Part shown: one piece after another, positions 22,178 to 58,689 of the stretch
Layout of the letters: each line of letters starts with the position of its first letter
Position numbering within the stretch: the stretch's first letter is position 1
Source: Eledone cirrhosa
Lineage: Eukaryota
Reading direction: 5' to 3'
DNA length: 64,000 bases
Assembly: GCA_964016885.1 (NCBI GenBank)
Contig: OZ024746.1
Location: forward strand, 1,550,001-1,614,000
Program-made: the position numbers and the translations under genes
Notes under the pieces: generated by a model
The model's input: only the letters and a program-made list of their open reading frames with translations
Told to the model about the DNA's origin: nothing
The model's database searches: none

Positions 22178-22288
22178 CTTGGAAACTTTGGAATCGCTGC
22201 AGATCAGGTGACATGGTCTCGTGTTACTATGGTTTCTGATGAGTGGATCGCAGTGAGACATGATAGCAGAGACAGAAAAATATCTCAT
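22178..22288 (+). CDS. Clathrin-TD-like gene, first identified coding exon (LGNFGIAADQVTWSRVTMVSDEWIAVRHDSRDRKISH)
   Basis: tttttag|CTT ... CAT|gtaagt; 111 nt, phase 0/0; aligns to CHC [28 protein letters not shown]. Confidence 0.85.
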
Positions 22289-23667
22289 GTAAGTCAAATA
22301 TTGTGTGTGTGTGTGTGTCTGTGTGTGTGTGTGTCTGTTTGTGTTTGTGTGTGTGTGTGTGTGTCTGTGTGTGTCTGTCTGTGTATGTTTGTGTGTTTGT
22401 CTGTGTGTATGTCTGTATGTGTGTGTGTCAACCATAAGTATCTCAGTTACATATATAGTTCCATAACTCCTGGTGGAGTGAGGTGACATGTTGACACCAT
22501 TTCTAGGCTATTTTATCACCTGGTGGAACCCATCTCCAGGTCTGAATATGGCAGATTTCTTCCAGGTAACAACAACAATAAAACATTGATAGTGTTTTCA
22601 AGTTTAGGTTCATACATATGTGATGACTGGTGTGAATGGCTGAAAATTATACATAGACACATATGAGTGCATATATGATTGTATATGGTGGCTGCCAACT
22701 CGTTTTCGAGTACGGCCACTACTTTATATCCATGTAGGAGAACCCCTACCGATGTGCTGAACGAGTGTGACTTTTTAGTCCAGCCAGCGACTTGAAAACT
22801 CTGGTACAAACGCTACACTTGTGACAATTATTGACACATAGTGCTGGGCCCATGGTAACATGTAACGACAAGTGCAGAGAGATCTCCAGATATAAAGCAA
22901 TGCCTGTGCCGTGAAGCTTTTATAGTGAGCAAAGGCACTGCACAAAGCCAGTCCCACTCTCTTAACCAAGATGATATTTACCAAAAAGAAGAACAAGTCA
23001 ACATCATTGGATACCATCAGGGTTGCAGGTGTTATATCAGAGTTTTCCTTCTCCTAGAATTCTGCCTTGACAAAGGCTAAGGGGTCATCTCTCCCGGTGA
23101 TTTTGGATGGCCATTGACTCTTAAGAGCTCCTTTGCCCTTTGACAGGTTTTGTTTTTAGTCCTGCAGGATGTCCAAAGTCATCCTCCTCACCAAGAAACC
23201 TTGGTGGGGCTGCCAGTTTAGTCGCCCACAACCAGACCATGAGACAGGTTGTACTGGGATACATGTTACCAGTAGCATGAGTGTATATATGGGTGTTATG
23301 TATGCATAAGTCATTATTCCAAAGCTGGTGCATTAGGAATTGTTAAATAACAGCACTACTTTGTGTATATAAACACACACACACACACACACACACACAC
23401 ACACACACACACACACCACACACCACACACAACACACAACACACACCACACACCACCACTACCACCACCACACACACACTATATATACATATCAAATTCC
23501 CCAACTATTGCCAAATACTCTTCACAGCTTTACCTCGGCAACTTGCCATCAATTACTTAAGCTAACTCTAACAATTACAACCATGCCAGTTATTTTATAT
23601 TCTTTCTTTTTATCCCACAGAATCTTTATGGATAGTTTTACTAAATAGCTTTCATTCCATCTAAAAT

Positions 23668-24400
23668 ATCATCATCATCATCATCACGTCCACTTTCATG
23701 GGTTGGACAGGTCCTTCTCAGCATGGCTTCTCTCGACTCACTGCCTTTCTTCATTATCTCCTCTGCCAGTCTCAACAATTTGAGGTCAGCTCTCATCACC
23801 TCTGCCCAGGTTTTTGTTGATCTACCTCCACTGGCTTTACCTGGCACTTCATCCATCGATCATTGTTTTGTGTGCATCACGTCTGTACCAACGCAGTCTT
23901 CTCTCCTGTACACCACCTCAGATTCCTTTTAAACCCAGCTTCTCCCTCAGTTCATCCCAACTCTGCCTTTCTCTCACATTTACATTGCATATCCAATGAA
24001 GCATGACTGCTTCATTTCTCTCCAGTCTACACATGTCTTCTGCAGTCACAGTCCATGTTTCACTACCATGTAGCACCACATGTCTTCTGCAGTCACAGCC
24101 CATGTTTTACTACCATGTAGCACCACATCTTCTGCAGTCACAGCCCATGTTTCACTACCATGTAGCACCACGTCTTCTGCAGTCACAGCCCATGTTTCAC
24201 TACCATGTAGCACCACATGTCTTCTGCAGTCACAGCCCATGTTTCGCTACAATGCAGCATCACATCTCACACACAGGCATTATACAGTTATTTAGTACGT
24301 AGGGAGAAACCTTTTGTAGTCACCAGTGGGAGTAGTTCTCTAAACTTCTTGCATCCCTTCCTTATTCTAGCTGTAATTCTCTCAGAGCACCTTCCTTCAA
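23668..24400 (-). mobile_element. Degenerate RTE 3' fragment with internal tandem amplification of the LHGSETW segment
   Basis: ORFs 23918..24103(-), 24046..24240(-) and 23641..23856(-) show RTE C-terminal motifs; (CAT)n tail at ~23668-23686. Confidence 0.85.
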
Positions 24401-25140
24401 TAAGTTGAAAATGACCAAATATTTTTTTCTTCAGCATATGGATAATTAGGGCATTAAAAGGTTAAGGGAATTTAAGGGAAAGTGGTCTTATAATATTTGG
24501 ATATTTAGGGCATTATAGGGTTATGGGAGAGAGGCCTGATATTTAGATATTTATGGCATTATAGGGTTATGGAAGAGAGGTCTGATATTTAGATATTTAG
24601 GGTACTATAGGGTTAAGGGGGAGAGGTCTGATATTTAGGGCATTATAGGGTTAAGGAAATTAAAGGGAAAGTGGTCTTAGAATATTTGTAATATTATCCA
24701 AATAAACATATATATATATAATAATAAAACATAACTGTCCCCATTTTGAATCCAGATGAAATAAGTATGTCTATGTATTTAGCATCAGTTCCCTGAAGAA
24801 TACCAAATATTTTAGAACTACTGATATAAATGTTTAAAATGGTTTTACTAAAGACATTTTCCTGGCTGCTGGCTGCTCCTTTTACTTAAGTTAATGTTGC
24901 AGTTGTTGTTGTTGTTGTCATCTAATAATTGTTTCTACTATTGGCACAAGGCCAGCAATTATCCAGTACATTACTGGTACTTTATTTTATCGACCCCGTA
25001 AGGATGAAAGGCAATGTTAACCTCGGCGGCTAATAATGAAGTCACTTATCATTTGAATATTTGTATCATTTTACAATAATAATAATAATGTTTTCTTTAT
25101 TGGCCACAAGGGCTGACATCAAGAAAACATTACAGACGGC

Positions 25141-25250
25141 CAGGACGGTACAGGACGGTACAGGACGGTACAGGACGGTACAGGACGGTACAGGACGGTA
25201 CAGGACGGTACAGGACGGTACAGGACGGTACAGGACGGTACAGGACGGTA
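25141..25250. repeat. Perfect (CAGGACGGTA)11
   Basis: Direct reading. Confidence 0.97.
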
Positions 25251-25364
25251 CGATGTGGGTTTTGTGCGTGTAAATATTTTTATTTATATAAGAAAAGAAA
25301 AAAAAAGGACATAGAAACATATAATAATAATAATAATTGTTTCTACTTTTGGCACAAGGCCAAT

Positions 25365-25940
25365 TCATCATCATCATCATCATCAACGTTTAACGTCCGT
25401 GTTCCACGCTTGCATGGGTTTGGACGGGGGTAGTCCCACTTGAGGCAAGAGTGATTGTCTTGCTCGCATAGGACTGTCTGGCAGGTTTTCTACAGTTGGA
25501 TGCCCTTCCTAACACCAACCACATTTACAGTGTGGGTCTGGGAGGTTTTTACCGTGTTGCCTACACGGCCACATTACAGCGTGGACTGTGTGTTTTTTTG
25601 TCGTGACACCTACACGATCTCATTTGTTTCGGCCTCGATGGTGCGGCACCAACATAACTTTACATAGAACGGGGTGGTGTGGATGGGATGGGGTGGGGGT
25701 GGTGGTGGTGGGACGGGGTGTATTTTGTTAGAGATGCCTACTGGCTGGAGTAGGTTTTACTATATATTTAGGTAAGGCGGGTCTTCTCTGTTACTGAGTA
25801 CCGCCAAAGGTCTCGGTCCAGTGACATTGTCTTGGAGAGGTGTAAGTGTGTGATGTCGGAGTTTATCAGCTCGTCCCAGGTTTTTCTAGGTCTGCCTATT
25901 CCGTGACTACCGTCTATCTTTATTGCCCTGCACTTTGTTA
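25365..25940 (-). mobile_element. Degenerate RTE 3' end (ORF tail + 3'UTR + (CAT)n)
   Basis: Similar to the reverse complement of 42640-43098. Confidence 0.75.
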
Positions 25941-57234: not shown

Positions 57235-57384
57235 GTAAGGTGTTAACATTATCTCCCTCCCACTTCCTCTCTCATACCCCCTCCCTCACTTTCCTACCCC
57301 CTCCCTCACTCTCTACTCCCCCTCCCTCACACTTTTATCTATTTATTTATTTGTATAAGAACTCAAAAGAAAGAAGACTGCCCT

Positions 57385-57580
57385 GGTCGGCTGGCTGGTT
57401 GGTTGGTTGGTTGGTTGGTTGGTTGGCTGGCTGGCTGGCTGGCTGGTTGGTTGGTTGGCTGGCTGGTTGGTTGGTTGGTTGGTTGGCTGGCTGGCTGGCT
57501 GGTTGGTTGGTTGGCTGGATAGCTGGTTGGCTGGTCGGCTGGCTGGTTGGATGGATGGTTGGCTGGTCGGTTGGATGGCT
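57385..57580. repeat. (GGTT/GGCT)n tetranucleotide repeat
   Basis: Direct reading. Confidence 0.93.
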
Positions 57581-57792
57581 GTTTGGGCTTTTTTCATATT
57601 CAAGGTGGACCATAATTTGCATCGTACCAAAAGTCCCACCAAAAAATAAAAATTGGTTTTAGACTATAAGAGTTCTCTCCCTTGCTGTGTTTTTCCCTCC
57701 CTTATTTCGGAGAGTGTTTACATGCCAAAGACATTCCGTGTGTATAGGGCCCCTACAACTCCAAGAATTAGTGGCCCATGGATGGATAGATG

Positions 57793-58134
57793 TACTCTCG
57801 GGTCCCAAATAATAGGGGGTCGGGTGGAAAATCGGTAAATTTTCCAGGTTGTCTCCGTTGATATTTTTCTAAAAACCAGAATTAGTCGTTTAGTTTACAT
57901 ATAGCGACCCCCCCCCCCCCCGCAACCCATCCTATTTATTTTATAACATATGGTTTTCTAGTCATGTACTTTTTTTGTCCTGTATGTTTTTAATGTATAA
58001 AATTAATTGTCACAGGAATACTAAGACTTAAAATAAAATTTCACTGGAGATAGATTAGTAAAATTGAATAAGTGGGAGGGAGGGATCTGAAATATTAATA
58101 AGGGAGGAGGGGGGTTATTGAAGACCCGAGAGTA
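57793..58134. mobile_element. MITE with TA-flanked TIRs (TA)CTCTCGGGTC...GACCCGAGAG(TA)
   Basis: Perfect 12-nt inverted ends; same family at ~5835-6140, 8560-8765, 27185-27310, 52594-52930, 56222-56380, 58790-59149. Confidence 0.8.
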
Positions 58135-58296
58135 TCACTAAACCTAATTGTAACAACACAGTTATAAGAGGCCTGTGTGTTGTTGGTTTCACTTTACATA
58201 TAAACAGCTGAGAAGAGAGAGAGAAATATGCTATAATTTGAATGTTTGTTGTTTTACTGCTCTAAGTTTGTTTGTCTTTTTTTGTCTTTTTAACAG

Positions 58297-58689
58297 ATTT
58301 TAAGCGTTGACATCAAGAAAGATCTTCTGATATCACAAATCCGAGAGAGTGCCAAGTGGGCGAACCAAGCTAACAGACTGGAACGTGTGATGTCTGTCGT
58401 ACAGAAGGAGGGGCAGGAATCGAGTGAGAAGAAACAGACTCCACATAAAAACAAAAACTACAACAACAACAACTTGTGCTTCCAAATGAACAATAATAGC
58501 AGCACCACAACAACAACATCAACAACAAGTAATATTACTAGCAGTAGCAATAGTAGTAGCAGTAGTAGTATGTTGAAGGATTATTCTAAAGTACCATTAC
58601 TATTATCCCCGCCGTCCACTTTACCAACAATATGTTATGAGGACAGTGATAGTAGTCGCAGCCAAGAGGCCAGTGAAAGTGATTCATAA
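58297..58689 (+). CDS. Probable terminal coding exon: end of propeller and start of linker (ILSVDIKKDLLISQIRE...) then N/T/S-rich tail, stop TAA
   Basis: tttttaacag|ATT; aligns to CHC VLSVCVEEENIIPYI; frame open for 130 codons to TAA at 58687-58689; no strong internal donor seen. Confidence 0.8.
   Translation: MLSVDIKKDLLISQIRESAKWANQANRLERVMSVVQKEGQESSEKKQTPHKNKNYNNNNLCFQMNNNSSTTTTTSTTSNITSSSNSSSSSSMLKDYSKVPLLLSPPSTLPTICYEDSDSSRSQEASESDS

Follow-up and report, generated by a model that had tools for sequence, protein, structure and literature searches.

In the usual view, invertebrates have just one clathrin gene, which evolves slowly, and vertebrates have one duplicate of it. Animals also have CLHC1 (clathrin heavy chain linker domain-containing 1), a protein related to part of clathrin that carries linker-type helical repeats and no propeller. 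Here we describe a gene with the reverse composition. In a stretch of 64,000 nucleotides of the 3.0-Gb genome of Eledone cirrhosa (G000:C6:1550001-1614000; hereafter the window, meaning the whole stretch that was analysed), we find exons 2-9 of a paralogue of the clathrin heavy chain (CHC) that encodes the N-terminal propeller and the first linker helices, followed by a tail and a stop codon. This gene, which we call legless clathrin, is an intact, single-copy gene at a locus of its own. Its introns and sequence identify it as an ancient partial duplicate of the CHC gene and as a member of a genuine gene family of great age that appears to be undescribed.

The closest described counterpart is CHC's own N-terminal domain (NTD) (CHC17/CLTC and CHC22/CLTCL1; PF01394; PDB 5m5r, 1c9i, 1utc and 3gd1). 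Legless clathrin is like that domain in its make-up of propeller and first linker helices, in a sequence identity of 33-36%, in the seven introns that the two have in common, and in the apparent retention of the anchor residues of the arrestin box. It is unlike CHC in length (about 375 residues in the family, against about 1670), in being without the CHCR legs and the light-chain or trimerisation region, in its separate single-copy locus, in its faster evolution, in the PDZ-type C-terminus of many lineages, and in its altered clathrin, W and Royle boxes. Its boundaries are essentially equal to those of the laboratory fragment NTD(1-363), which PMC5182127 (section 2.1) describes as monomeric and as binding peptides weakly; unlike the fragment, legless clathrin is a natural, selected gene whose sites have diverged. 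Also on record are specialised CHC forms that owe their origin to duplication or to alternative splicing and have been lost in certain lineages, namely CHC22 and the short-spliced CHC17-SAS (PMC6548504; bioRxiv 10.64898/2026.08.20.745084). These forms are near full-length, trimerise and are found in jawed vertebrates or mammals only, whereas the legless family consists of the head alone and dates from before the split of protostomes and deuterostomes. The bioRxiv report covers only C-terminally shortened, near full-length CHC forms, and PMC6548504 credits the lamprey with a single CHC-encoding gene, whereas three lamprey species carry the legless paralogue. Our literature search, which stopped short of supplements and subscription journals and covered most sources in part, found no account of a clathrin paralogue made of the terminal domain only.

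Structure and expression of the legless clathrin gene

Exons were placed by tblastn with the Octopus orthologue, which is 92% identical, as the query. All eight acceptors in the window are AG and all seven internal donors are GT. Spliced together, exons 2-9 give 444 open codons and one terminal stop (the two alternative frames contain 22 and 44 stops), just as a preliminary description made from the sequence alone had read them. The first exon, which that description had listed as missing, lies upstream of the window, 74.7 kb from exon 2; it spans 51 nt (17 codons) from an ATG to a GT donor and was located by an ungapped score of 65, against 26 for the runner-up, in a scan of 122 kb on both strands. 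The complete protein of nine exons has 461 residues. The features are as follows (window positions unless a contig is named).

G000:C6:1497384-1497434, + strand: exon 1, residues 1-17; ATG, GT donor
22178..22288, + strand: exon 2, residues 18-54; AG/GT; the preceding intron matches a CHC intron
34390..34492, + strand: exon 3, residues 55-88; the preceding intron is the sole one absent from canonical CHC
45376..45528, + strand: exon 4, residues 89-139
48020..48138, + strand: exon 5, residues 140-179; W170 (equivalent to CHC W164, arrestin box) and E158 (equivalent to Q152, W box)
50209..50373, + strand: exon 6, residues 180-234; Q198 and I200 (equivalent to CHC Q192 and I194, arrestin box)
54417..54533, + strand: exon 7, residues 235-273
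57061..57234, + strand: exon 8, residues 274-331
58297..58689, + strand: last exon; closing strand of the propeller, two helices derived from the linker (ending near residue 365), tail and stop
58690..58908, + strand: start of the 3' untranslated region (3' UTR), from the transcript contig of run X24, which stops within a dispersed repeat before the true 3' end

The tail encoded by the last exon is rich in Ser, Thr and Asn, comprises about 95 residues predicted to be disordered, and terminates in a block that is conserved among octopods.

Transcript support comes from the public run X24, which carries the same organism code as runs X21-X23 and whose type is not on record. An X24 contig of 1874 nt (depth 14.6) reads from the acceptor of the last exon through the stop to 58908 with zero mismatches, and a contig of equal length, depth and strand covers exons 5 and 6 alone and joins them over a 2070-nt GT..AG intron. 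By these matching properties the two are taken to be one contig, in which the stretch of 290 positions separating the mapped pieces agrees in size with exons 7 and 8 (291 nt), and a further 686 positions would accommodate exons 1-4 (418 nt) plus a leader. The contig is broken because a copy of a high-copy dispersed repeat (58820-59190) sits in the 3' UTR. A related copy lies on the other side of the last exon, at 57790-58130. In X21 and X22 the intron between exons 5 and 6 is covered without a splice joint. The gene is spliced through to its own stop, as observed in one contig of one run in which the poly(A) site is not seen. Many full-length Logan records of the family lie on contigs of 1.2-7 kb, as would be expected for spliced transcripts.

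Origin by partial duplication of the CHC gene

The contig that carries the paralogue also holds, at a distance of 84 Mb, a complete canonical CHC gene, which extends from the terminal domain as far as residue 1615 or so (C6:85.76-85.87 Mb; 85761078-85871301). Large introns mark the terminal-domain part of that gene, and its leg exons are compact. When a family protein was searched against the genome, two loci only were recovered, with seven matches in the window and five at canonical CHC. Among 13 genome-wide matches to the leg domain PF00637, 12 fall within the canonical gene (C6:85.85-85.87 Mb); the other is a weak match on a second contig (G000:C21:13412694-13412861, minus strand, E 0.44), possibly a VPS-type CHCR protein. 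Five CHC leg queries placed 105 of their 123 matches at the canonical locus, whereas the window and the 100 kb that follow it downstream yielded none at E<=1e-3 (best value 0.46). Likewise, CHC queries spanning everything beyond residue 345-375 found nothing near the legless gene or in the proteins of the family. With a transcript that reads through the stop and no leg match downstream over this distance, the proposal that the gene encodes a stand-alone terminal-domain protein holds.

Legless clathrin and the CHC terminal domain of the same genome share 119 of 330 residues (36%). For exon 57061-57234, where 21 of 58 residues had been counted by eye as identical to human CHC, a PDB alignment returns 21 identities over 57 aligned residues (E 2e-10). 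All seven introns of the CHC terminal domain recur in the paralogue in both position and phase, and the paralogue has one extra. The shared introns and the level of identity therefore point to an old, DNA-level partial duplication of the CHC gene.

A family at least as old as the bilaterians

The paralogue is conserved far more widely, and is far older, than the preliminary description supposed. Homologues were collected by word-limited searches (which returned 12 of 18, 44 of 5442 and 39 of 6996 candidates) and by a profile search of which the best 150 of 1847 matches were considered; among those 150, 34 scored as family-like, one of them (P0192) being a leg-bearing CHC. In all, 296 proteins were gathered and 179 were family-like, with a median length of 375 residues (range 160-1087) and no leg homology (E<=0.01) in any of the 179. 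Two alone exceed 520 residues. One contains an insertion within its sequence that resembles a gene-model error; the other, P0105 from Owenia fusiformis, continues after the propeller into a long tail of about 700 low-complexity residues without leg homology. Of 11 full family proteins, 7 scored above the cut-off for PF01394, and the leg domain PF00637 was not found in the family proteins, of which that of the window ends at residue 461. PF09268 and PF13838 matched 0 of 12 family sequences at E<=0.1, in a scan that lacked a positive control for both models.

Members occur in molluscs (cephalopods, gastropods, bivalves and a chiton), in nemerteans, annelids, the brachiopod Lingula, the priapulid Priapulus and the centipede Strigamia, and in chelicerates (horseshoe crabs, scorpions, spiders and mites). 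Among deuterostomes they occur in a hemichordate, all five classes of echinoderms, lampreys, lungfish, caecilians, turtles and lizards. The window protein is 63% identical to its abalone and chiton orthologues, and homology ends at one common place across all lineages. Database entries label these proteins 'clathrin heavy chain(-like)' or hypothetical; many entries of about 370 residues named 'clathrin heavy chain 1/2-like' are thus to be corrected to legless clathrin, and are not broken CHC models.

In quick IQ-TREE trees of family and CHC rows (52+33 and 27+20), the family stands on one side of a long branch and the CHCs on the other, with SH-aLRT support of 99 and 100. The earlier suggestion that the protein is not the CHC orthologue is borne out by this separation, together with the complete CHC elsewhere in the genome. 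Molluscs, vertebrates and Ambulacraria form supported groups within the family, which follows the animal tree; the gene is therefore at least as old as the bilaterian ancestor. By its sequences, this is one clean orthologous family of protostomes and deuterostomes. The stem between family and CHC amounts to about 0.95 changes per site, and where the family attaches among the CHCs is unsettled (p-AU 0.37, approximately unbiased test, for an origin from animal CHC). The path from octopod to caecilian measures 2.66 in the family, against 0.20 from the octopod's own CHC to vertebrate-type CHC, so that the family evolves about 13 times faster. Within the tree, P0039 of Gigantopelta aegis sits on a long branch outside the other 15 mollusc rows and may be a fast-evolving copy.

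No named match came from mammals, birds, frogs, teleosts, insects, nematodes or non-bilaterians in searches that were word-limited or confined to the best 150 matches, with some rows unnamed. Two clusters from the ESM Atlas consist largely of Chordata not specified further. This distribution suggests that the family was lost in the model organisms.

Predicted fold and adaptor-binding sites

An AlphaFold2 model of the Octopus orthologue (P0002), built on an alignment of 144 sequences (89 family and 55 CHC-type rows), has a mean predicted local distance difference test score (pLDDT) of 83, with 330 residues at or above 90. The propeller occupies residues of about 10-337 and is followed by helices at 339-348 and 350-375 and by a tail with pLDDT below 50. 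The top 20 Foldseek matches listed are all clathrin terminal domains, the best being 5m5r (TM score 0.92, root-mean-square deviation 2.0 Å). The predicted fold is thus the seven-bladed clathrin propeller with two helices. In the terminal helices the inner positions remain hydrophobic, and 44 of 47 rows share an Arg. Polar residues take the place of the hydrophobic ones of CHC at three positions (hydrophobic fractions falling from 0.72 to 0.04, from 0.89 to 0.17 and from 0.59 to 0.08). These positions probably face the next leg helix in CHC, and such a switch is expected if the helices adapted to the absence of the leg.

Four adaptor-binding sites of the CHC terminal domain were followed through the family. 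F27, V50, I66, I80, L82, T87, I170 and M264, some of them yeast equivalents, were counted as site positions. The other site residues follow PMC5182127 and PMC11543927. Counts refer to 42 family rows, with nine rows of a mite clade and one long-branch row set aside. In the arrestin box (W164, L183, Q192, I194, H229, I231, V233), W164 is present in 42/42 rows, Q192 in 41/42, I194 in 38/42 and H229 in 37/42, and V233 is replaced by L in 42/42. By sequence, the anchors of this box are thus kept in the family.

The three other sites appear altered in the family. In the clathrin box (Q89, F91, K96, K98, R64), most rows retain L82, F/Y91 and K/R96, the family has lost K98 and R64, and Q89 is E in 21 rows and Q in 18; the window protein has E for Q89, L for K98 and G for R64. 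The W box (F27, Q152, I154) seems conserved yet unlike that of CHC: F27 is W, F or Y, mostly W, I154 is V or I, and Q152 is E in 31 rows and Q in 11. Close to it lie conserved residues specific to the family, in window-protein numbering T29 (38/42), R32 (39/42), H45 (39/42) and R153 (35/42). The Royle box (L5, I7, F9, E11, I282, N296) is not retained, with I or V for F9 in 39/42 rows, P or S for L5, and a variable N296; E11 is mostly kept. Kept and altered sites within one family make the individual roles of the four terminal-domain sites testable by comparison.

A class I PDZ ligand has the C-terminal consensus x-[ST]-x-[VLI]-COOH. This type of end is found in 17/52 family rows, in 8/23 lineage representatives and in all nine rows of the mite clade, which are highly diverged apart from it. 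Elsewhere it occurs at a background of 4.1% per position, in 2/116 non-family proteins and in 0/30 full-length CHCs. The enrichment has a binomial p of 2e-6, or of 0.001 once related lineages are merged.

Proposed function and alternatives

We tentatively propose that legless clathrin is a locally tethered, non-polymerising, monomeric peptide-binding adaptor or regulator. A protein of propeller and two helices would be without the parts that build cages, and by analogy with the isolated NTD, which is monomeric according to PMC5182127 (section 2.1), it would be monomeric, having no trimerisation domain. The groove between blades 4 and 5, the arrestin box, would bind short leucine-rich motifs such as those of arrestins and endocytic adaptors, and the central W-box pocket would have been retooled for another ligand. 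In the many lineages that have it, the C-terminal PDZ-type motif may anchor legless clathrin at a membrane scaffold, which would supply the local concentration that a monomer without avidity is missing. A subset of clathrin ligands could in this manner be held or positioned at particular membrane sites, tuning coat recruitment locally. In cephalopods, which have no such motif, the disordered Ser/Thr/Asn-rich tail would have to target the protein by other means.

Several observations weigh against this proposal. Around the arrestin box, the commonest residue at R188 is E, most rows have V or A at F218, and K245 has disappeared, while a need in folding could explain why W164 and I194 persist. 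Taken as a set, no site of the four is conserved within the family better than random columns, the arrestin box coming nearest (p ~0.07), and its retention of CHC residues is likewise unexceptional (p 0.17-0.27). The PDZ-type test was post hoc, the motif having been seen first, and the kinship of lineages inflates it; the motif is absent from the window protein, from all cephalopod, echinoderm, spider and amniote rows, and from 15/23 lineage representatives. The alignment used for folding contained CHC rows, so the fold prediction depends on clathrin, and the fast rate of evolution suits a new partner and a shared one equally.

Such a new partner is the essence of the strongest alternative, a propeller fully repurposed for a role outside clathrin trafficking, for example in a signalling, ciliary or cytoskeletal complex, chiefly through its remodelled central pocket. 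The long stem and the fast rate are in keeping with it, as are the changes in three of the four adaptor sites, the new invariant residues beside the W-box positions, and the fact that CHC residues are not kept above background at any site. We nevertheless consider it somewhat unlikely, given that the backbone-binding anchor Q192 and its hydrophobic neighbours are nearly invariant and that no candidate partner has been identified. The conservation of this anchor spans more than 500 million years.

A decoy that competes in solution, as an unattached terminal domain in the cytosol that sequesters clathrin-box adaptors and dampens coat assembly throughout the cell, is improbable. The boundaries of the protein match those of the laboratory fragment, which binds adaptor peptides (PMC5182127), and the mostly kept clathrin-box residues, with Q89 in 18 rows, fit such a role. 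However, the same source reports that monomeric NTD is captured far less efficiently than oligomerised NTD and that single sites are of low affinity (sections 2.1 and 3.5). A cell-wide decoy is unlikely because the monomeric domain is a poor binder of adaptors and three of the four sites are changed. The window protein differs at Q89, R64 and K98; a decoy should track the CHC binding surface, and the family does not. More improbable still is an accessory coat component that joins lattices through shared multivalent adaptors, or touches the legs of CHC in the way of terminal domains within cages, and modulates lattice curvature or size: although the entire propeller and both linker helices with their invariant Arg are retained, the leg, light-chain-binding and trimerisation regions are missing and the outer helix positions have turned polar. 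An artefact, whether pseudogene, truncated gene model or front half of a longer gene, is scarcely credible, for the transcript support of one contig from one run of unrecorded type, without a poly(A) end, is set against a frame open over nine exons, the high identity to the Octopus, abalone and chiton orthologues, a homology boundary identical in all lineages and the lack of leg sequence nearby.

A head-only paralogue kept across protostomes and deuterostomes means that the adaptor-binding domain has long been used apart from the cage. On a broader and more speculative view, which we regard as possible though doubtful, the family could form a third branch of the clathrin heavy chains that has gone unnoticed and is at least as old as Bilateria. 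From octopus to lizards it would be anchored to a scaffold and serve arrestins and endocytic adaptors as a trap or platform, setting the sites of coats, and it would have been lost in mammals, teleosts, insects and nematodes. If this were true, these losses would explain its absence from findings in model organisms.

Other features of the window

Intron 3 of the legless gene contains a retrotransposon of the long interspersed nuclear element (LINE) type (40273-42790, + strand). Its 696-codon frame encodes a PHD-like finger as well as a reverse transcriptase (PF00078, E 2e-32), and the element continues in a second frame to 42790. Two tandem-repeat arrays, at about 20-3550 and about 11100-16460, contain stop-free frames of 1176 and 1757 codons that would translate into a repeated peptide; these arrays are likely minisatellites without coding meaning.

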